DNA of 64,000 nt, from assembly GCA_036253495.1 (NCBI GenBank), contig GCA_036253495.1_4125.1. The stretch is one strand, 5' to 3'. Under the pieces are notes generated by a model. That model was not told the DNA's origin. It did no database searches and was given only the letters and a program-made list of their open reading frames with translations. A program made the translations under genes and the position numbers. Positions 964 through 61,332 of this stretch are shown piece by piece. Each line of letters begins with the position of its first letter. Position 1 is the stretch's first letter. This DNA comes from a phage.

Positions 964-992
964 TTGACATAACTGTGTGTTGCTCGTATAAT
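964..992 (+). promoter_or_regulatory. sigma70-type promoter (TTGACA-17-TATAAT) with 8-bp inverted repeat flanking the -10
   Basis: TTGACA 964-969, TATAAT 987-992; inverted repeat GTGTTGCT 977-984 / AGCAACAC 1004-1011. Confidence 0.6.
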
Positions 993-1039
993 GTTTATCA
1001 CAGAGCAACACTATTTTAAATTAAATGAGGAATAACCTA

Positions 1040-2167
1040 ATGTCCGAGAAAGAAATCAATCCAAAAAAAGCAACTACCAAAACTTCTAAGCGTACTACGA
1101 CCAAAACCAAAGGTAATACTTTTGATGCGAGTGATATTTTCGACCAACAGTCTAAGACGTTACCAGTACTGAAAGATACAAAAGGTAACACTATGTCTTT
1201 AACTGTTCAGAACATTAACACCATTGGAACAACTGCTGGTGCAGGTGTCGGACGACTGGCTGATGAAATCATGTCAAAAGTGAACGTCACTGATGACAAT
1301 ACTGAATTTGGTAAATCAATTACCACAATTTTATCACTAACCCGTGCTGTTGATATTGACAGTCTACAAGATGATAAATCAATTGTAGGTTGGGTCAAAA
1401 AACTCTTTGTCAATGCAAAACAGAAAGTTGGTGATCAGTACAAGAATAGTAAAGAGCAGATTGATGAAATCATGAACACACTCCAGGTTGGTATCAATCG
1501 CCAACATAGTGAATGTGAGTGGTTGGATACTGCTTACAATGAGAATAAAGCCTATCTATTTGAATTACGCGATACGCTGGTTGAATTGGAACAAGTTACA
1601 AAAACTCAAGATGCTAAACTGGAAGAAATGCAAGCGAACCCTGATGTGGATTCTTTCGCAATCCAAGAGCAGAAGATGATTTGTGAAGCATTGTCTAAAC
1701 AGGAAGATAAGATTCGCCGTCTTATCATGATGTGTGAGCTTAGTGGCCCTCGTCTGATGAGTATGAAGAAAGTGAATCTAAACACTGTATCTAAATTTGA
1801 AGATCTGAAATCTGTTGTCATCCCTGCATGGAAATCACAACTAGCAGAACAATTGATTTCTGAACGCCAACGCAAAGATAATGAGTTGGGTAATTTGATT
1901 GATAATGAAACTAACCGTTTACTTGAAGTGAACTCCAAAATGGTAGCAACTAATATGTTAGATGCTGCTAAAGCTAATAACCGTGGTATTGTGGATATTA
2001 AAACATTGCGTAACGTACACAAAACAATGATCGATAGCATCGAAGCAGTACTGATTGAAGAGAAGAAAGGTAAGGAAGAACGTGAACGTGCTAAACATGA
2101 AATTGCACAGTTGTCCTACGAACTTGAAGAAACTCTTCGCGAAATTGCTGACAAAGCTAACAAGTAA
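1040..2167 (+). CDS. hypothetical protein, K/T-rich N-terminus, helical/coiled-coil rich
   Basis: GAGGAA RBS 8 nt upstream of ATG 1040; long ORF; function not recognised (TelA-like only a weak guess). Confidence 0.6.
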   Translation: MSEKEINPKKATTKTSKRTTTKTKGNTFDASDIFDQQSKTLPVLKDTKGNTMSLTVQNINTIGTTAGAGVGRLADEIMSKVNVTDDNTEFGKSITTILSLTRAVDIDSLQDDKSIVGWVKKLFVNAKQKVGDQYKNSKEQIDEIMNTLQVGINRQHSECEWLDTAYNENKAYLFELRDTLVELEQVTKTQDAKLEEMQANPDVDSFAIQEQKMICEALSKQEDKIRRLIMMCELSGPRLMSMKKVNLNTVSKFEDLKSVVIPAWKSQLAEQLISERQRKDNELGNLIDNETNRLLEVNSKMVATNMLDAAKANNRGIVDIKTLRNVHKTMIDSIEAVLIEEKKGKEERERAKHEIAQLSYELEETLREIADKANK

Positions 2168-2170
2168 TAG

Positions 2171-2199
2171 TTGACATATAGATGTGCCCATTGTATAAT
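2171..2199 (+). promoter_or_regulatory. sigma70-type promoter with 9-bp perfect inverted repeat embracing the -10
   Basis: TTGACA 2171-2176, TATAAT 2194-2199; inverted repeat ATGTGCCCA 2182-2190 / TGGGCACAT 2199-2207. Confidence 0.6.
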
Positions 2200-2232
2200 G
2201 GGCACATATTTTATTAATTATCTAAGGATAAT

Positions 2233-4042: not shown

Positions 4043-4593
4043 ATAAGCCTCTGATTTTGTTGGTTGGTGTGTTGGTGATTTTTGTTATTGGTGTGTTTGC
4101 AACTGTAAGTATGTATAGTTCAGCACATGATAGTGCAGTGAATTTTGAAGGTAATATTAAAAAGTACTACGATGCATCTGAAAGTCAACTGAGCAGTTAT
4201 ACACTAACTATTCAAGAAAAGGTTCAAGTATCGGACAAATATAAGGATGCATTGAAAGAGACAATCGAAGCGTACTTTAAGGGACGTGAAGGAGTTGATC
4301 AGAAATTTGTAATGTCACAGATTCAACAGCAAGTTCCAAATCTTGATCCTAAGATTTATCAAGAGTTGATGGTTACAATTGATGCAGGGCGTGAGAAGTT
4401 CAATAACTTGCAGAAAATGAAAATTGAACAATGTACTGATTATGAGAAATTCCGCAAAGGATTCTGGAACTCCAAAATCATCGATTCTAATACATTCCCA
4501 AGTAAAGATATTGAACATTTGTGTACTGTCGTTTCTGATACTCGCACTAAGAAAGCAATGGAAACTGGTATTCAGGAAGTAATTAAATTGTAA
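4039..4593 (+). CDS. membrane-anchored hypothetical protein
   Basis: ATGA start/stop overlap with upstream gene; N-terminal TM helix; LemA-like only a weak impression. Confidence 0.55.
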   Translation: MNKPLILLVGVLVIFVIGVFATVSMYSSAHDSAVNFEGNIKKYYDASESQLSSYTLTIQEKVQVSDKYKDALKETIEAYFKGREGVDQKFVMSQIQQQVPNLDPKIYQELMVTIDAGREKFNNLQKMKIEQCTDYEKFRKGFWNSKIIDSNTFPSKDIEHLCTVVSDTRTKKAMETGIQEVIKL

Positions 4594-4600
4594 GTATTTG

Positions 4601-4627
4601 GGGAGTACATTATTGTACTCCCTTTTT
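4601..4627 (+). terminator. intrinsic terminator hairpin GGGAGTACA-TTAT-TGTACTCCC plus T-run
   Basis: Perfect 9-bp stem 4601-4609/4614-4622 followed by TTTTT. Confidence 0.6.
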
Positions 4628-17337: not shown

Positions 17338-17508
17338 ATGAGTCTGAGTGAATCCTGGAAACAGTTCAAAGAAGAGATTGGTTATCGTGGTGTATCGAGT
17401 GAACCAATCAATCGTACTGAAAGCATTAAGGCCAGTACTAACGGTACTACCTATGACCGATATGACCCACGATACGGGTTACATGAAGAAGTCAAAAAAG
17501 AAGATTGA
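17338..17508 (+). CDS. small hypothetical protein (56 aa)
   Basis: AAGGGG RBS then ATG 17338; preferred over overlapping track ORF 17348..17548. Confidence 0.35.
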   Translation: MSLSESWKQFKEEIGYRGVSSEPINRTESIKASTNGTTYDRYDPRYGLHEEVKKED

Positions 17509-17571
17509 CAATATATCGAGAGTGTGTGATAATACTCTCGTCTTTTAATTAAACAAAAAGGTAAAATAAAA

Positions 17572-26025: not shown

Positions 26026-27714
<1,689 letters not shown>

Positions 27715-27717
27715 TTC

Positions 27718-27873
<156 letters not shown>

Positions 27874-27901
27874 CAAAACGAAATGATAATAGGAAATTAA
27901 A

Positions 27902-28087
27902 ATGCAACTTTTAATTCTTTCAATATTGTATATTATTATAATGGTTCCTATATCAATACGTTTAATTATACTTGAACGATTTTTATCGAAACATGGAAAT
28001 AGATCTATGATATTTGTACCAATCGGGCTTATATTGTTTGGTATATTTGCATTTATAATGGGAATTAACGCTACATTCATTTCATAG
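27902..28087 (+). CDS. small membrane protein
   Basis: ORF with two hydrophobic helices. Confidence 0.45.
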   Translation: MQLLILSILYIIIMVPISIRLIILERFLSKHGNRSMIFVPIGLILFGIFAFIMGINATFIS

Positions 28088-28096
28088 GAAACAAAT

Positions 28097-28578
<482 letters not shown>

Positions 28579-28585
28579 AAGAACG

Positions 28586-28618
<33 letters not shown>

Positions 28619-28619
28619 C

Positions 28620-28675
<56 letters not shown>

Positions 28676-28676
28676 T

Positions 28677-28807
<131 letters not shown>

Positions 28808-28808
28808 A

Positions 28809-28883
<75 letters not shown>

Positions 28884-28926
28884 GGTTCAAGAAGAAAACT
28901 GGGGTTTTTAACCTAACGAGGTCAAT

Positions 28927-29069
<143 letters not shown>

Positions 29070-29070
29070 A

Positions 29071-29201
<131 letters not shown>

Positions 29202-35686: not shown

Positions 35687-35715
35687 GAAAAAGCCTCCAT
35701 ATGGAGGCTTTTTTT
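35687..35715. terminator. bidirectional intrinsic terminator between convergent genes
   Basis: Hairpin AGCCTCCAT / ATGGAGGCT flanked by A5 upstream and T6-7 downstream. Confidence 0.75.
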
Positions 35716-36871
35716 ATTGTTTGTCATAACCAATCACTACAATCTTAGCATCAAATGCTTCGGCAGAAGTAATTGTAACATTCTCATCATCATCAAGCTG
35801 AATTTCACATTGAACTGCATCATTGTTATTATCATATACTTGAACAAAAACAAATTCTTTTAAGTGTCCAGTACTGGATATATTAATTTCATACATTTCA
35901 CCATTGCGTGTCCATTCAGAAGAAGAGACATTTTGTACATATGGAGATGTTTGCAATGTACTACCCAATATACTTAGTTTTATAGGTGTATTATCATATA
36001 TTGTTACTGTAATATCACCAGTGGAGCTAACATTAATGCCAGCAGATACCAAATTATTATGATTATCATATACCTGAATAGCTAAGTTATTACCACGCCC
36101 ATGTACATCACCAGGGATTCTTGCACTATACACATCACCAGGCCCAGTACTGAATGTAGTTACTGATACAGTAGTGGTAAAGCCGTCATCATCACCAACA
36201 TCTAATATATTAAAATTAACGCTTTTTGTATTATAAAAATCAGACGTAAGAGTTATAGTTGCAGTTCCGGTTGACATAATTTCCGGTACTGTTATAATGA
36301 ATTCATCATTGACTATTGTACTCGTTGAATACTCGGACCCATCTGAAAATTTTACAGTAATTGTCATTCCTGTTGTGTTGATGGTTTGTCCAGCATTGAA
36401 CAGTTTACCCGATATTTCAGTATCCCCAACATGAACTGGATTAACTAAAATATTATCTATATCACGATCAATAATTGAACAAGTTGGTGTGTACATATCA
36501 AAAGTAACATCGGAGTTTCCAAATATCGTTTTGTGTAATTGGAATTTAGTTACAAACCCTGTTGGATCTGTAGGTTTCAATTGATTAGTGTATCCACGAA
36601 CAAAGAAAGTATTCTTTGCAATAACATCCAATAATTCATCATCGGATTTTTTATAGTTAAGTAAATTTCCTACCTTATCATAAGAAGTAATTTGTACGCG
36701 TCTATATATTTTGTTTGTTACAGGATCTATAATATCAAATAGTTTATAACTACGCTGTCTGTAAATTCTTATATTTTTTAATTTGGTTCCATCGATTAGT
36801 AAAGCACCATCCACGATATAACCACATTCACCGAACTTGTATTCTCCGGCATCAGCTATGGTTCTAGACAT
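35714..36871 (-). CDS. Ig-like repeat protein (possible capsid-decoration or adhesin-type)
   Basis: Only long minus-strand ORF; GAGGGG RBS; repeated V/T-rich units (VQVYDNNND, IQVYDNHNN, TVTIYDNT). Confidence 0.6.
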   Translation of the reverse strand: MSRTIADAGEYKFGECGYIVDGALLIDGTKLKNIRIYRQRSYKLFDIIDPVTNKIYRRVQITSYDKVGNLLNYKKSDDELLDVIAKNTFFVRGYTNQLKPTDPTGFVTKFQLHKTIFGNSDVTFDMYTPTCSIIDRDIDNILVNPVHVGDTEISGKLFNAGQTINTTGMTITVKFSDGSEYSTSTIVNDEFIITVPEIMSTGTATITLTSDFYNTKSVNFNILDVGDDDGFTTTVSVTTFSTGPGDVYSARIPGDVHGRGNNLAIQVYDNHNNLVSAGINVSSTGDITVTIYDNTPIKLSILGSTLQTSPYVQNVSSSEWTRNGEMYEINISSTGHLKEFVFVQVYDNNNDAVQCEIQLDDDENVTITSAEAFDAKIVVIGYDKQ

Positions 36872-39988: not shown

Positions 39989-40042
39989 CATAAAATGTGT
40001 TAAGGGATATAATTATTTTATCAAAACAAAGGAGGGACACAT

Positions 40043-40294
40043 ATGAATCTCGATGTGGTGAAATCATTAACTGAAGCTTTACAGAAAAATGAAGTTCAAT
40101 GTCAAGAACTACGTGACACTATTAAGGTTGAATACGCTCGACTTCAAGGTATGTTACAAGAATCAGAATGGGTAGTTACTAAAAGCATCGAAGGTATCTA
40201 CAAAGATATCGAATCAATGTTCAATAAGAAAAGTAAGATTGAATCAGATTCTTTTAACAAACGTAAAGAACTAAATGCAGTTTTAGGTATCTAA
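40043..40294 (+). CDS. hypothetical protein
   Basis: AAGGAGGG RBS. Confidence 0.5.
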   Translation: MNLDVVKSLTEALQKNEVQCQELRDTIKVEYARLQGMLQESEWVVTKSIEGIYKDIESMFNKKSKIESDSFNKRKELNAVLGI

Positions 40295-40298
40295 GTAC

Positions 40299-40327
40299 TT
40301 GACAGTACTGAAATATAGGAGTACAAT
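40299..40327 (+). promoter_or_regulatory. sigma70-type promoter (TTGACA-17-TACAAT) with -10 inside palindrome GGAGTACA-A-TGTACTCC
   Basis: TTGACA 40299-40304, TACAAT 40322-40327; palindrome 40317-40333 resembles the terminator stem at 4601. Confidence 0.5.
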
Positions 40328-40367
40328 GTACTCCTACTTTAATTGAAAACCAAAAAGGAAAAACACA

Positions 40368-42987: not shown

Positions 42988-42994
42988 AGAACAA

Positions 42995-43021
42995 GGGTTG
43001 ACTTAGGTCAGCCCTTTTTTT
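42995..43021 (+). terminator. intrinsic terminator
   Basis: Stem GGGTTGAC / GTCAGCCC with loop TTAG, followed by T7. Confidence 0.7.
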
Positions 43022-45506: not shown

Positions 45507-45785
45507 ATGTCTTTTACCAAAGAAGAACGTGACCTTATTAAAAAAGCAATCTGGTTTTATGCTAATGAAGGGGAGTGCGATGAAGAAAAAGCACGTGAAC
45601 TGTGTAATATCCTTGAGCAGAAACAAGAACTGAAAGTGTATCGTATCCGTGTTTTGGATGAAGGGGATCGTATTGTCCTAGCTGAAACAAAAGAAGAAGC
45701 AGAACAAATCTTCACTGATAAAAACGAAAATCCACATTGGATGGAAGAAGTCTGTGAAGTAAAAAAAGGTACTTATATCGATTGA
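45507..45785 (+). CDS. hypothetical protein
   Basis: ATG 45507 with AGGA RBS. Confidence 0.5.
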   Translation: MSFTKEERDLIKKAIWFYANEGECDEEKARELCNILEQKQELKVYRIRVLDEGDRIVLAETKEEAEQIFTDKNENPHWMEEVCEVKKGTYID

Positions 45786-45810
45786 CTGTACTGAATAATA
45801 GCAGTATAAT
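45782..45810 (+). promoter_or_regulatory. sigma70-type promoter (TTGACT-17-TATAAT)
   Basis: TTGACT 45782-45787, TATAAT 45805-45810. Confidence 0.6.
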
Positions 45811-45903
45811 GTTTATATCAAAGGGAATGCAGTGAAAGGAAAGACAGCATAATCGTACTCGTCACTGCGTTCCCGCCCTTTTAAATTAAATGAGGAATTA
45901 ACT

Positions 45904-49333: not shown

Positions 49334-49575
49334 TGTTAATTTTATACGTTGTACTGATTTTATTAGTTAACTTTTCTCCAACTATTTTAACTTTAGTATG
49401 GGGTAAATTTTATGATGCTGTAAAAGTATTTCTCTTGAATACTGCATGGGTATTGGTAAGTCTGACTCTTTATTGGTCTACTGATTGGATGATGATTGTG
49501 AGTCATATACTACTATATATTTCATTCCTAATGTTGTTCCAAGAAAAAGAAGTACTTGACAAACTTGAAGGTTAG
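49333..49575 (+). CDS. small membrane protein
   Basis: TAATG overlap; hydrophobic helices. Confidence 0.45.
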   Translation: MLILYVVLILLVNFSPTILTLVWGKFYDAVKVFLLNTAWVLVSLTLYWSTDWMMIVSHILLYISFLMLFQEKEVLDKLEG

Positions 49576-49607
49576 ACCTATAATATCCTTCTACTAAGGG
49601 GGATATT

Positions 49608-49868
49608 ATGGCAGTAGGGTTTGGTTCACCAGATAACCACCAAGAAACGATACAAGCAACTATTGATAATGCTATTGACTTTGCTCGCTCAAATCTGTAT
49701 AGTGGTGAGTCTGAAGAGTACTGCATCGACTGTGACTGTGAGATACCAGAGAAGCGGAGGTTAGTACTGAAGGGTGTAAAACGATGTGTTCAGTGTCAAT
49801 CAAAGGTTGACAAGGTATATCAAGAGCGTTATAATAGACGTGGAAGTAAAGACAGCCAACTCCGTTAA
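49608..49868 (+). CDS. hypothetical Zn-ribbon protein
   Basis: GGGGGA RBS; CIDCDC...CVQC motifs. Confidence 0.5.
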   Translation: MAVGFGSPDNHQETIQATIDNAIDFARSNLYSGESEEYCIDCDCEIPEKRRLVLKGVKRCVQCQSKVDKVYQERYNRRGSKDSQLR

Positions 49869-51596: not shown

Positions 51597-51788
51597 ATGT
51601 TGATTTATCAATGTGATAACATTCGTGTTATACAGCATCCCTACTTACAAATCTTTGATGTGCAGCAGTATATGGAAGGTGATGACCCAAGAACCTATGG
51701 TCGTAAGTATGATTACTTCACTGTAAAGCAGTGTCGTAACATCAAAGAAGTACGACAATTAGTTCAAGAACTTCAAAATAAAGGTTGA
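51597..51788 (+). CDS. hypothetical protein
   Basis: ATG 51597 after GAGGACT RBS; track start 51567 is a non-ATG codon. Confidence 0.45.
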   Translation: MLIYQCDNIRVIQHPYLQIFDVQQYMEGDDPRTYGRKYDYFTVKQCRNIKEVRQLVQELQNKG

Positions 51789-51814
51789 CTTCGGTCAGCC
51801 TTTTTTGTTATAAT
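51783..51814 (+). promoter_or_regulatory. terminator-promoter composite cassette
   Basis: Hairpin GGTTGAC-TTCG-GTCAGCC plus T6; embedded TTGACT 51785-51790 and TATAAT 51809-51814. Confidence 0.65.
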
Positions 51815-53148: not shown

Positions 53149-53180
53149 GGGGTTGGCATAAGTCAGCCCTTTTGTATAAT
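53149..53180 (+). promoter_or_regulatory. terminator-promoter composite cassette (degenerate copy)
   Basis: Hairpin GGGTTGGC-ATAA-GTCAGCCC plus T4; TTGGCA 53153-53158 and TATAAT 53175-53180. Confidence 0.5.
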
Positions 53181-54210: not shown

Positions 54211-54434
54211 TGAAAAGGTATAAAATTGAATACCTACTTAAAGTAAGAGAGAAAAGTATTAGTAGTGAGAAATACACCAGTGAGATATTCGTCAGAGATG
54301 AGTATTACATTGGTGAAAATGAAGTTGAAGTACTGTTACAATGCATAGAAAATGAATTTCGAGATATGACACGTTATATGTCATTTGAGATATCGTGTGC
54401 AAAAGTTACATTCTTGAACAATACTTCATATTAA
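54210..54434 (+). CDS. hypothetical protein
   Basis: ATG 54210 overlapping upstream stop. Confidence 0.5.
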   Translation: MKRYKIEYLLKVREKSISSEKYTSEIFVRDEYYIGENEVEVLLQCIENEFRDMTRYMSFEISCAKVTFLNNTSY

Positions 54435-54438
54435 AAAA

Positions 54439-54478
54439 GGGTTGACTTTTGTTGACCCTTTTTGCTATTCTATAAATA
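54439..54478 (+). promoter_or_regulatory. terminator-promoter composite cassette with downstream TATAAATA (T4 late-promoter-like)
   Basis: Hairpin GGGTTGAC-TTTT-GTTGACCC plus T5; TTGACT 54442-54447; TATAAATA 54471-54478. Confidence 0.5.
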
Positions 54479-56063: not shown

Positions 56064-56072
56064 TAAAAAAGA

Positions 56073-56104
56073 GGTTGACTTCGGTCAGCCTTTTTTGCTA
56101 TAAT
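56073..56104 (+). promoter_or_regulatory. terminator-promoter composite cassette
   Basis: Hairpin GGTTGAC-TTCG-GTCAGCC plus T6; TTGACT 56075-56080 and TATAAT 56099-56104. Confidence 0.65.
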
Positions 56105-57013: not shown

Positions 57014-57041
57014 GAAAAGTATTTGACAAACTCAACTAGTA
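57014..57041 (+). promoter_or_regulatory. sigma70-type promoter with GTACTG-TATAAT extended -10
   Basis: TTGACA 57014-57019, TATAAT 57036-57041. Confidence 0.6.
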
Positions 57042-57097
57042 CTGTATAATGTTTATCAAGGGGATGAACTTCTCATCCCTACAATCGAGGAACTACC

Positions 57098-58927: not shown

Positions 58928-58937
58928 TCTTTTACAT

Positions 58938-58970
58938 GGGTTGACTTCGTTCAGCCCTTTTTGCTATAAT
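58938..58970 (+). promoter_or_regulatory. terminator-promoter composite cassette
   Basis: Hairpin GGGTTGA...TCAGCCC plus T5; TTGACT 58941-58946 and TATAAT 58965-58970. Confidence 0.65.
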
Positions 58971-59660: not shown

Positions 59661-59666
59661 TATAAG

Positions 59667-59699
59667 GGGTTGACTTCGGTCAGCCCTTTTTGCTATAAT
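59667..59699 (+). promoter_or_regulatory. terminator-promoter composite cassette
   Basis: Hairpin GGGTTGAC-TTCG-GTCAGCCC plus T5; TTGACT 59670-59675 and TATAAT 59694-59699. Confidence 0.7.
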
Positions 59700-61289: not shown

Positions 61290-61299
61290 CAATACAAAA

Positions 61300-61332
61300 G
61301 GGTTGACTTCGGTCAGCCCTTTTTGCTATAAT
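61300..61332 (+). promoter_or_regulatory. terminator-promoter composite cassette
   Basis: Hairpin GGGTTGAC-TTCG-GTCAGCCC plus T5; TTGACT 61303-61308 and TATAAT 61327-61332. Confidence 0.7.

Follow-up and report, generated by a model that had tools for sequence, protein, structure and literature searches.

In the stretch of phage DNA analysed here (64,000 nt, hereafter the window), a small group of strong sigma-70-type promoters carries an inverted repeat that encloses the -10 element. These sites probably (at a rough probability of 0.6) represent composite promoter/terminator, or promoter/attenuator, modules of the PeSL (promoter-early stem-loop) type in the presumed early region of an Asteriusvirus jumbo phage. 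Two signals would be superimposed since each of the intergenic gaps holding the modules, 60-85 nt in length, has to accommodate the end of the upstream transcript as well as the beginning of the next. A preliminary description of this DNA had drawn attention to three such promoters and had proposed operators for dimeric regulators, or leader hairpins, as their function. All three are genuine sigma-70-type promoters, near-consensus and located on the coding strand, and in each of them the -10 lies within a perfect inverted repeat; the view that the palindromes share an architecture while differing in sequence also holds, and their action as hairpins in nucleic acid is the most plausible one. 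They are best regarded as neither operators nor leaders, since pairing and position are kept while the arm sequences change, and since the promoters' own transcripts are predicted to lack the 5' arm.

Source of the window and its promoter set

The closest record to the window is Escherichia phage A4 of the genus Asteriusvirus (98% identity), and judging from the sequence the window originates from an Asteriusvirus jumbo phage and not from a T4-type phage of the Straboviridae. It contains about 130 ORFs, and the sites are situated where small unknown ORFs are numerous. A scan of the window for strong promoter matches (at least 11 of 12 consensus positions) returned 41 on the + strand and none on the - strand, with 2.6 expected; hairpins enclosing the -10 are a minority feature of these promoters, present at about five of the 41. 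The sites described below match the sigma-70 consensus at 11-12 of 12 positions, have 17-nt spacers and lie in the interval from a stop codon to the following Shine-Dalgarno (SD) sequence and ATG. At gathering thresholds, Rfam reported only tRNAs in the window and no match at the sites. For comparison with relatives, IMG/VR was searched with the TelA-like protein encoded downstream of site 1, both as a single sequence and as an alignment, which yielded 121Q and RaK2 only, and further relatives were then taken singly from the GenBank phage collection.

Hairpins that enclose the -10 element

The coordinates of the modules are compiled in Table 1. The inverted repeats reported at 964..1011 (site 1) and 2171..2207 (site 2), as well as the position of TACAAT within a repeat at site 3, are borne out, and in each case the arms extend further than had been recognized: at site 1 from GTGTTGCT (977-984) and AGCAACAC (1004-1011) to 9 bp, at site 2 to 11 bp and at site 3 to 9 bp. 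Site 1 precedes a TelA-like gene (ATG at 1040, Pfam TelA match), and its loop contains the -10 together with the predicted start. Site 2 precedes a gene for a 3'-5' exoribonuclease (ATG at 2236, Pfam Rv2179c-like match), and here part of the -10 is in the loop and part in the 3' arm. At site 3, the -35 is itself bordered by AGTACT, at 40294 and 40304, and the palindrome GGAGTAC/GTACTCC is reused as a plain terminator at 4602-4621, where the adjoining promoter-like match is weak (8/12). A further match, GGAGTAT...AGTACTCC at 26207, was set aside as it falls within coding sequence, and the combined pattern of a promoter and a GGAGTA hairpin had no match in the fetched loci.

Table 1. Promoters and hairpins of the modules in the window, with the sequence following each hairpin and the predicted folding energy (kcal/mol) with its z-score
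Feature	Coordinates	Strand	Elements	Tail after hairpin	Fold (z)
Site 1 promoter	964..992	+	TTGACA 964-969, 17-nt spacer, TATAAT 987-992; 12/12 match		
Site 1 hairpin	977..1011	+	arms GTGTTGCTC (977-985) / GAGCAACAC (1003-1011), 17-nt loop	TATTTTAAAT (1012-1021)	-14.3 (-3.5)
Site 2 promoter	2171..2199	+	TTGACA 2171-2176, 17-nt spacer, TATAAT 2194-2199		
Site 2 hairpin	2182..2207	+	arms ATGTGCCCATT (2182-2192) / AATGGGCACAT (2197-2207), loop GTAT	ATTTTATTAA (2208-2217)	-16.9 (-3.9)
Site 3 promoter	40299..40327	+	TTGACA 40299-40304, TACAAT 40322-40327		
Site 3 hairpin	40316..40336	+	arms TAGGAGTAC (40316-40324) / GTACTCCTA (40328-40336), loop AAT	CTTTAATTGA (to 40346)	-11.6 (-3.8)
Site 4	17505..17550	+	TTGACA 17505-17510, GATAAT 17528-17533		
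Site 4 hairpin	17517..17540	+	CGAGAGT (17517-17523) / ACTCTCG (17534-17540) around GATAAT	TCTTTTAATT	-12.8 (-4.7)
49556 variant	49556..49611	+	TTGACA 49556-49561, TATAAT 49579-49584, hairpin 49578-49611		-17.7 (-3.8) for 49556-49612; -16.7 for the hairpin alone
-35 family copy	51780..51814	+	hairpin GGGTTGAC-TTCG-GTCAGCCC, -35 in 5' arm		

Two modules are additions to the preliminary description. One is site 4, at which an indel of a single 47-aa ORF has its end. The other is the variant at 49556, in which the 5' arm coincides with the -10 region and the 3' arm with the SD and ATG (49608) of the next gene, encoding a DksA/TraR-type zinc-finger protein (Pfam zf-dskA_traR match). Inclusion of the SD and ATG in the 3' arm is confined to this variant; at sites 1-4 the SD follows 10-25 nt beyond the hairpin. 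In addition, a family of about eight near-identical copies has the hairpin at the -35 (the others start near 42993, 53149, 54434, 56066, 58934, 59663 and 61296). In this family the T-run doubles as the spacer and is followed by TGCTATAAT, and U·G wobbles in the sense of the + strand are present.

Non-random occurrence and resemblance to terminators

Perfect repeats of at least 9 bp around the -10 occur at 4/41 promoters, as compared with 0.16 when the flanks are shuffled and 0.45 at random genomic positions, and not one of 1000 shuffles reached four promoters with such repeats. When the best -10-enclosing hairpin was scored for all 41 promoters, five outliers of -11 to -16.7 kcal/mol stood apart from the rest, which were at -8.2 kcal/mol or weaker, and the fold z-scores of the hairpin sites range from -3.5 to -4.7.

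Several properties of the hairpins point to transcription termination. The four 10-nt tails comprise 24 T in 40 bases (5-7 T per tail; background frequency 0.33, P = 4e-4). Sites 2, 3 and 4 are terminator-like in a heuristic scan, and a stem of at least 5 bp with G+C and a loop of 3-8 nt was found at these three sites but not at site 1, with its 17-nt loop. On a d'Aubenton-Carafa-type formula, the -10 class is borderline (+5, +1, -13 and -13), while the same formula gives clearly positive values for the -35 family (+15 to +32) and values of +7 to +52 for stand-alone terminators. The U-tracts of the -10 class are weak and interrupted, and therefore termination at these hairpins is probably partial.

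Transcription is predicted to begin some 7 nt downstream of the -10, inside the hairpin or at its 3' edge; from this start on to the 3' end of the hairpin the distance is 0-2 nt for sites 2-4 and 12 nt for site 1. Consequently, the promoter's own transcript should lack the 5' arm, and the hairpin would form only in read-through RNA arriving from the upstream gene. The proposal that the repeats are leader hairpins of these promoters' transcripts was abandoned on this account, the 5' arm being, by prediction, untranscribed. Since a literature search found no transcriptome for the Asteriusvirus group, we infer termination from the features of the hairpins and their tails, and start sites and early timing are likewise predictions.

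Conservation of pairing among related phages

Site 1 is the most deeply conserved site, across genera and with loops of 17-25 nt. Its -35 and -10 hexamers are invariant across 10 relatives, and the pairing, including a covarying C-G/U-A pair, is kept in Asteriusvirus, RaK2, PHA46 and GAP32; EJP2 has an unrelated stem at this position. The arms occur as GTGTTGC/GCAACAC or as GTGCTGC/GCAGCAC, which amounts to a compensatory change from T-A to C-G. In the alignment, 77% pairing is obtained with the arms in register, a value that falls to 49% or less once they are shifted against each other, and the covariation score of 0.176 (0.119 in shuffles) was attained by 11/500 shuffles. In RaK2 and PHA46, the arms were misaligned by MAFFT, so that the formal pair count understates the pairing in both phages, and these arms were read directly. 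The covariation suggested by the alignment is modest evidence, as just one pair covaries clearly and the independent lineages are few. The loop is atypical for intrinsic terminators, and site 1 may have another role.

At the other sites, the sequence turns over while a hairpin is frequently retained. In other Asteriusvirus phages, site 2 is occupied by an unrelated stem of 12-16 bp followed by a run of T5-6, with the -10 in the loop, and RaK2, EJP2, PHA46 and GAP32 have a classical terminator without a promoter at the orthologous position; within the phage collection, the site 2 cassette itself was found in A4 only. Site 3 is kept in 121Q, PBECO4, UE-S1, Ecwhy_1 and CMSTMSU, with a U·G wobble (GTGCTCC) in 4/5 of them. 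Relatives have a different stem, GGAGTAT-GTATA-ATACTCC, at the position of site 4. Neither RaK2 nor fHe-Yen9-04 has a counterpart of the 49556 element in front of the homologous gene.

Proposed mode of action and alternative explanations

In the composite reading, a polymerase coming from the upstream gene would transcribe both arms, and a 7-11 bp hairpin, with a U/A-rich tail behind it, would form in the nascent RNA. The folded hairpin would terminate or attenuate read-through, possibly leaving a protective stem-loop at the 3' end of the upstream message. Host sigma-70 polymerase, recognizing the embedded TTGACA-N17-TATAAT, would start inside the hairpin or at its 3' edge, and the resulting transcript, devoid of the 5' arm, would be blind to the terminator. 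In the 49556 variant, the ribosome-binding site would be hidden only in read-through RNA. A point to be set against the terminator reading is that a terminator located 3' of the -35 leaves an incoming polymerase free to cross the promoter.

Weak AT-only repeats at other promoters, for example ATAAAAT/ATTTTAT at 39990, look like chance products, and one might suppose that all of the repeats are short palindromes arising at random in AT-rich intergenic DNA; the outcome of the shuffles, the bimodal hairpin energies and the conservation across genera effectively refute this. Occlusion of the -10 is a common design of repression, and perfect dyads whose centre falls on the -10 or beside it would suit dimeric phage or host regulators. 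We nevertheless give the operator explanation very little credence, since the five palindromes are unrelated and have spacers of 3, 4, 10, 12 and 17 nt (17, 4, 3 and 10 nt at sites 1, 2, 3 and 4, respectively), and none of them recurs elsewhere in the window apart from the site 3 stem, which at 4602 serves as a plain terminator. Moreover, orthologous sites preserve the pairing and change or replace its sequence, and the only G·T 'mismatches' that occur are in the orientation expected of G·U wobbles in + strand RNA.

The hairpins could also act in RNA without being terminators, namely as processing sites, as pause sites or as mRNA-stabilizing 3' stem-loops after cleavage in the A/U-rich tail. 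The weak and interrupted U-tracts and borderline terminator scores are in line with such functions, as are the conserved A/U-rich TTAAATTAA-like tail after each hairpin and the deeply conserved pairing of site 1 in spite of its long loop. We consider this unlikely in view of the strong T-runs of the site 2 orthologues, the canonical terminators of distant relatives at that position and the terminator-like appearance of 3/4 sites in the heuristic scan; no processing signal was identified in the analysis, and RNase III sites were rejected because the stems are far too short. It is decidedly unlikely that the hairpins are primarily an 'origin tag', which would mark read-through RNAs as distinct from promoter-initiated RNAs for different decay, translation or factor binding. 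On that assumption, a dedicated regulatory function would be most readily ascribed to site 1, whose GUGCUG/CAGCAC stem and loop are kept from Asteriusvirus to RaK2, PHA46 and GAP32 and which lacks a U-tract; here the TelA-like gene might be controlled through the binding of a protein to the RNA, or through a structure that responds to DNA topology. Finally, the repeats might act as DNA, either in cruciform-prone, supercoiling-dependent promoters or as recombination hot spots for the shuffling of cassettes. Sites 2 and 3 combine spacers of 3-4 nt with arms of 9-11 bp, the small-ORF indel ends exactly at site 4, the whole hairpin is swapped at site 2, and PeSLs have been proposed to mediate such shuffling (PMC2839356). 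Against this, the spacers of 17 and 10 nt at sites 1 and 4 disfavour cruciform extrusion, the copies of the -10 class resemble each other only in the promoter hexamers and thus are poor substrates for homologous exchange, and wobble pairs suit RNA and not DNA; DNA-level action is therefore highly unlikely to be the primary role and could be an added one.

Significance

Under the preferred reading as composite promoter/terminator modules, PeSL-type fusions would extend from T4-type phages to RaK2-like jumbo phages, and the form embracing the -10 can persist at one locus across several genera despite turnover of its sequence. The delineation of transcription units in genomes of this type, 350 kb in size, should benefit. 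Gaps of this kind are not simple promoters. With a terminator and a promoter packed into about 45 bp, the modules may also be of use in E. coli engineering as very compact, naturally occurring insulators. The compact design has already been described in T4-type phages as PeSL, and no new mechanism is opened by the present sites.

Comparison with known systems

Inverted repeats centred on the -10 region are encountered in other settings. The hairpin promoters of the N4 virion RNA polymerase have such a repeat with a 3-nt loop, and a cruciform-regulated promoter with a repeat at this position was reportedly described by Horwitz and Loeb in 1988. The sites in the window share the -10-centred repeat with both, and site 3 shares the 3-nt loop with N4, but they differ in their canonical sigma-70 hexamers, their variable loops and RNA-type wobbles, and the lack of a common hairpin sequence. 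N4-type hairpin promoters were rejected on the grounds of the hexamers and the lack of a common hairpin, and nothing suggests a hairpin-reading polymerase here. In the T4 genes e, soc and I-TevI, a hairpin hides the ribosome-binding site in long transcripts, and the promoter lies inside the hairpin. The modules resemble this arrangement in having a promoter embedded in a hairpin that could fold only in RNA initiated upstream, and the 49556 element fits it closely since its 3' arm consists of SD and ATG; the hairpins of sites 1-4, in contrast, are clear of the ribosome-binding site, and the promoters here are of the sigma-70 and not of the late type. With intrinsic terminators the modules have in common a coding-strand hairpin of 7-11 bp located 10-30 nt after a stop codon and followed by a T-rich tail. 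They depart from them in the 17-nt loop of site 1, in scores well below those of the stand-alone terminators of the window, and in the interruption of the U-tracts, which is attributed to their double use as the initial transcribed region.

The closest parallel is provided by the PeSL cassettes of the T4-type phages RB49/phi1, PST/T4 and nt-1/KVP40 (Arbiol et al., 2010, PMC2839356; Comeau et al., 2014, PMC4122927). They are defined by a sigma-70 early promoter with a stem-loop, most often between the boxes or overlapping the -10, and both promoter and terminator activities have been demonstrated by means of lacZ fusions (PMC2839356; PMC4122927); a role in the shuffling of gene cassettes via mini-circles has been proposed (PMC2839356). 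The modules described here differ in belonging to an Asteriusvirus jumbo phage and not to the T4-type Straboviridae, a criterion that is taxonomic and not mechanistic, and in being predicted from sequence. Their -10-class stems are not polyG/polyC and are mutually unrelated, which makes them unlikely drivers of homologous shuffling, and site 1 is kept across genera and is not hyperplastic. The likenesses are nonetheless extensive: in both groups, a near-consensus sigma-70 promoter with an A-rich upstream tract and an internal stable stem-loop is located between a stop codon and the next SD, in regions of many small unknown ORFs, and the published subclasses include those overlapping the -10 and those overlapping the -35. 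A scan of phi1 revealed PeSLs of like geometry, GGGGATAT-agCATA-ATATCCCC and GGGTGTAT-atCATA-ATACACCC, and the -35 family of the window (AAAAGGG...CCCTTTT) resembles the nt-1 consensus A3-4G3-loop-C3T3-4 (PMC4122927).

Promoters Enclosed by Hairpins

The preliminary description named three promoters (sites 1, 2 and 3) whose -10 element lies within a perfect inverted repeat. All three are present as described, and so are the arms it gave, although the true repeats are longer than stated. Systematic scanning revealed a fourth site and a variant (see table). Perfect -10-enclosing repeats of at least 9 bp occur at 4 of the 41 strong promoters, compared with 0.16 expected with shuffled flanks and 0.45 at random genomic positions, and none of 1000 shuffles attained four such promoters. 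Across all 41 promoters, the energy of the best -10-enclosing hairpin is bimodally distributed, with five promoters at -11 to -16.7 kcal/mol and the remainder at -8.2 or weaker, and the promoter hairpins have RNA folding z-scores of -3.5 to -4.7. Promoters embraced in this way are a minority of the window's strong promoters; that palindromes and promoters coincide here by chance is exceedingly improbable.

Strong promoters, defined as TTGACA-N16-18-TATAAT with 11 or 12 of the 12 positions matching, are confined to the + strand (41 versus none on the - strand, with 2.6 expected from a first-order Markov model). Over its first 6 kb, the window shares 98.4% identity with the 355-kb Escherichia phage A4 (genus Asteriusvirus) and about 80% with other phages of the 121Q/PBECO4 group, Klebsiella phage RaK2 being a more distant relative. 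The G+C content is 34.5%, and nearly every ORF is on the + strand. Numerous small ORFs without known function, five tRNA genes and abundant sigma-70-like promoters give the window the look of an early-type region. In the related phage CBB, RpoD-like promoters are concentrated in the small early ORF region (PMC5259590).

Coordinates of promoter-hairpin elements and other features in the window
Feature	Position	Remarks
Site 1 repeat	977-985 + 1003-1011	9 bp
Site 2 repeat	2182-2192 + 2197-2207	11 bp, GTAT loop
Site 3 repeat	40316-40324 + 40328-40336	9 bp, AAT loop
Site 4	17505-17540	found by systematic scan
Variant promoter-hairpin	49556-49611	found by systematic scan
Stand-alone terminator	4589-4623	GGGGAGTACATTATTGTACTCCCT + T-run; same GGAGTAC/GTACTCC stem as site 3
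-35-class copy	42993-43016	
-35-class copy	51780-51814	
-35-class copy	53149-53180	
-35-class copy	54434-54463	
-35-class copy	56066-56104	
-35-class copy	58934-58970	
-35-class copy	59663-59699	
-35-class copy	61296-61332	
Hairpin 3' of promoter	45825-45876	GGGAATGCAGTGA...TCACTGCGTTCCC, then GCCCTTTTAAATT
Hairpin 3' of promoter	57061-57079	GGGATGA-ACTTC-TCATCCC
Bidirectional terminator	35687-35714	GAAAAAGCCTCCATATGGAGGCTTTTTT; end of 385-aa - strand ORF
AGTACT examples	26645, 28606, 28727, 40294, 40304, 45449, 57038	

Conservation of Pairing and Position

Orthologous intergenic regions were taken from up to 13 related phages. Site 1, upstream of a TelA-like gene, has its promoter and -10-enclosing hairpin in every Asteriusvirus genome examined. 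A promoter and such a hairpin also occur in four phages whose TelA proteins share no more than 45-53% identity with that of the window: RaK2, Salmonella phage PHA46, Cronobacter phage GAP32 and Escherichia phage EJP2. The window, A4 and WPEC5 have GTGTTGC/GCAACAC as arms, and UE-S1, PBECO4 and 121Q have GTGCTGC/GCAGCAC, a two-sided change keeping the pair; JNE01, ph0011, RaK2 and PHA46 carry the GTGCTG core in shorter or extended versions, the stems are lengthened by extra pairs that differ from phage to phage, and EJP2 has the unrelated stem GGGAGTAT/ATACTCCC. By a formal count, which understates pairing because MAFFT misaligned two distant sequences, in-register pairing covers 77% of cells, and sliding the partner gives 49% at most. 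The covariation score is 0.176 versus 0.119 in shuffles (11 of 500 shuffles reach 0.176).

At site 2, between TelA and an exoribonuclease gene, the stem ATGTGCCCATT/AATGGGCACAT is found only in the window and A4; in all other Asteriusvirus phages its place is taken by an unrelated stem of 12-16 bp, GAGTGCGTTTTTCA...TGAAAACGCACTC, with TATAAT in the loop and then a run of 5-6 T. The same position in RaK2, EJP2, PHA46 and GAP32 holds a textbook terminator without a promoter. From these terminators, and from the stem and T-run elsewhere, we infer that site 2 is a conserved terminator position on which the Asteriusvirus phages have overlaid a promoter. The site 3 hairpin is conserved, its 3' arm being GTGCTCC in four relatives, which in RNA of the + strand creates a U·G wobble. 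Site 4 has CGAGAGT/ACTCTCG in the window versus GGAGTAT-GTATA-ATACTCC at the same place in relatives; a 47-aa ORF directly upstream of it in PBECO4, 121Q and G17 is missing from the window, and homology restarts inside the promoter-hairpin element (window 17465-17520 versus PBECO4 locus L015 961-1160). What is conserved at sites 1-4 is pairing and position, not sequence.

In the variant, the downstream gene codes for an 86-aa zinc-finger protein of the DksA/TraR type (49608-49868), and the Shine-Dalgarno sequence and ATG of that gene pair with the promoter's -10 region (hairpin -16.7 kcal/mol). This hairpin would hide the ribosome-binding site in read-through RNA alone. Upstream of the homologue in RaK2 and Yersinia phage fHe-Yen9-04, no such arrangement is present.

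Operators, Leaders or Terminators

The palindromes had been proposed to be operators at which dimeric regulators occlude the -10 element, or else leader hairpins. Operators would be expected to repeat their half-sites at a fixed spacing and to keep their sequence, and the data show none of this: the five palindromes are unrelated, their spacers range from 3 to 17 nt, and the sequence is replaced at orthologous sites. Furthermore, the site 3 palindrome, GGAGTAC...GTACTCC, is found again at 4602-4621, where it makes up a stand-alone terminator complete with a T-run. The operator reading is therefore not supported; it is very unlikely, and so, separately, are DNA-level roles of the repeats. Since a weak, degenerate promoter-like match (TTGTAA-17-TATTGT, 8/12) surrounds this terminator, which is annotated as such in phage UE-S1, the element may be a decayed copy of a site-3-like architecture. 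A leader hairpin, in turn, requires both arms within the transcript. Transcription starts about 7 nt past the -10 element, and this geometry, applied here by inference, places the predicted +1 12 nt before the hairpin 3' end at site 1 and 0-2 nt before that end at sites 2-4. Lying in the promoter spacer, upstream of the predicted start, the 5' arm would be missing from the promoter's own transcript, which argues against a leader; because of this location, and given these start positions, the hairpin would be formable only in RNA arriving from the upstream gene.

We favor the reading that the sites join a terminator or attenuator to a promoter, with a probability of roughly 0.6. Read-through RNA would fold the hairpin ahead of a T-rich tail, while the embedded promoter would restart transcription and yield a new RNA that, without the 5' arm, would be immune to the terminator. 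The tails of sites 1-4 have T at 24 of 40 positions (background 0.33, P = 4e-4), and sites 2, 3 and 4 independently pass a terminator heuristic. The tails are interrupted U-tracts, probably because they also serve as the beginning of the next mRNA. Terminator scores of the d'Aubenton-Carafa type are borderline (+5, +1, -13 and -13), compared with +15 to +32 for the family of promoters with the -35 element in a hairpin and +7 to +52 for stand-alone terminators, so that partial termination (attenuation) seems more likely than efficient termination. An RNA role other than termination is unlikely for the sites in general. Site 1 may have another role, for example in RNA stabilisation, processing or factor binding, since its loop is long and its conservation deep. 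Rfam gave no match at the promoter-hairpin sites, and a literature search for transcript data on this phage group found none.

Further Features of the Region

Among the side observations, the excess of the palindrome AGTACT is the most striking, with 159 occurrences in 64 kb where base composition predicts about 21. The palindrome often extends to CAGTACTG, and counting both strands there are 153 copies of AGTACTG versus 7.6 +/- 2.9 in dinucleotide shuffles. The sites are spread over all three reading frames (45, 38 and 51) and non-coding DNA, several adjoining the -10 (GTACTG-TATAAT) or flanking the -35 element. Relatives are enriched as well, RaK2 included (18 versus 3.4 in 10 kb), and 7 of 9 sites are kept in relatives of about 75-80% identity, versus about 25-30% for any hexamer. 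This suggests DNA-level selection on AGTACT; no literature on its over-representation was found. GCGC is absent (about 55 expected from composition) and GGCC depleted (17 versus 55), a scarcity that looks like restriction-site avoidance.

Many promoters share an extended motif past the -10 element, TATAATGTTTAT(AT)C (987-1001, 13160, 26652, 27061, 45456, 45805, 57045). TATAATGTTT, with at most one mismatch, has 38 matches versus 22.7 expected, all 10 exact copies lying on the + strand. Strong promoters directly precede tRNA genes in the cluster at 26026-29191 (Gly, Ser, Met, Asn, Thr; a weak sixth Rfam match at 26026-26104), for example P27039 before tRNA-Gly at 27076. Stable hairpins, which could be structured leaders or short RNAs, lie within about 20-30 nt downstream of strong promoters at 45782-45880 and 57023-57082. 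The sole sizeable - strand ORF (385 aa, 35714-36871, within the region 35687-36871) has no Pfam match and contains a 12/12 + strand promoter match at 36271.

Comparison with PeSL Cassettes

The promoter-early stem-loop (PeSL) cassettes of T4-type phages combine strong sigma-70 promoters with stem-loops, and their promoter and terminator activities have been demonstrated with lacZ fusions; there are five positional subclasses, and in the commonest the stem-loop overlaps the -10 or sits between the two boxes (PMC2839356; PMC4122927). Their logic is the same as that predicted here for the hairpin-promoter fusions. A scan of 50 kb of phi1, one of the two PeSL-defining phages, found TTGACA...GGGGATAT-agCATA-ATATCCCC and TTGACA...GGGTGTAT-atCATA-ATACACCC, which embrace the -10 in the same geometry as the window's sites. 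The window's elements have the structure that defines PeSLs (promoter, stem-loop position, intergenic setting) but lack the taxonomic trait, as their phage is not T4-type. No description of PeSL-like elements in RaK2-like jumbo phages was found in the literature; in the single paper that contains both 'PeSLs' and 'jumbo', the former word stands in the reference list alone. PeSL copies are similar in sequence, the basis of their proposed role in recombination, whereas the -10 class (sites 1-4) lacks such similarity; the indel of the 47-aa ORF nonetheless ends exactly at site 4, and at site 2 one hairpin has been swapped for another.

A second PeSL-like class in the window comprises about eight terminator-promoter fusions that are nearly identical. 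In their hairpin, GGGTTGAC-TTCG-GTCAGCCC, the loop is of the UUCG type, there is a T·G wobble, and the 5' arm contains the -35 element; the T-run serves as the 18-nt spacer, an extended -10, TGCTATAAT, follows, and the terminator scores are clearly positive. This -35 class resembles the A3-4G3-loop-C3T3-4 stem-loops of phage nt-1 (PMC4122927).
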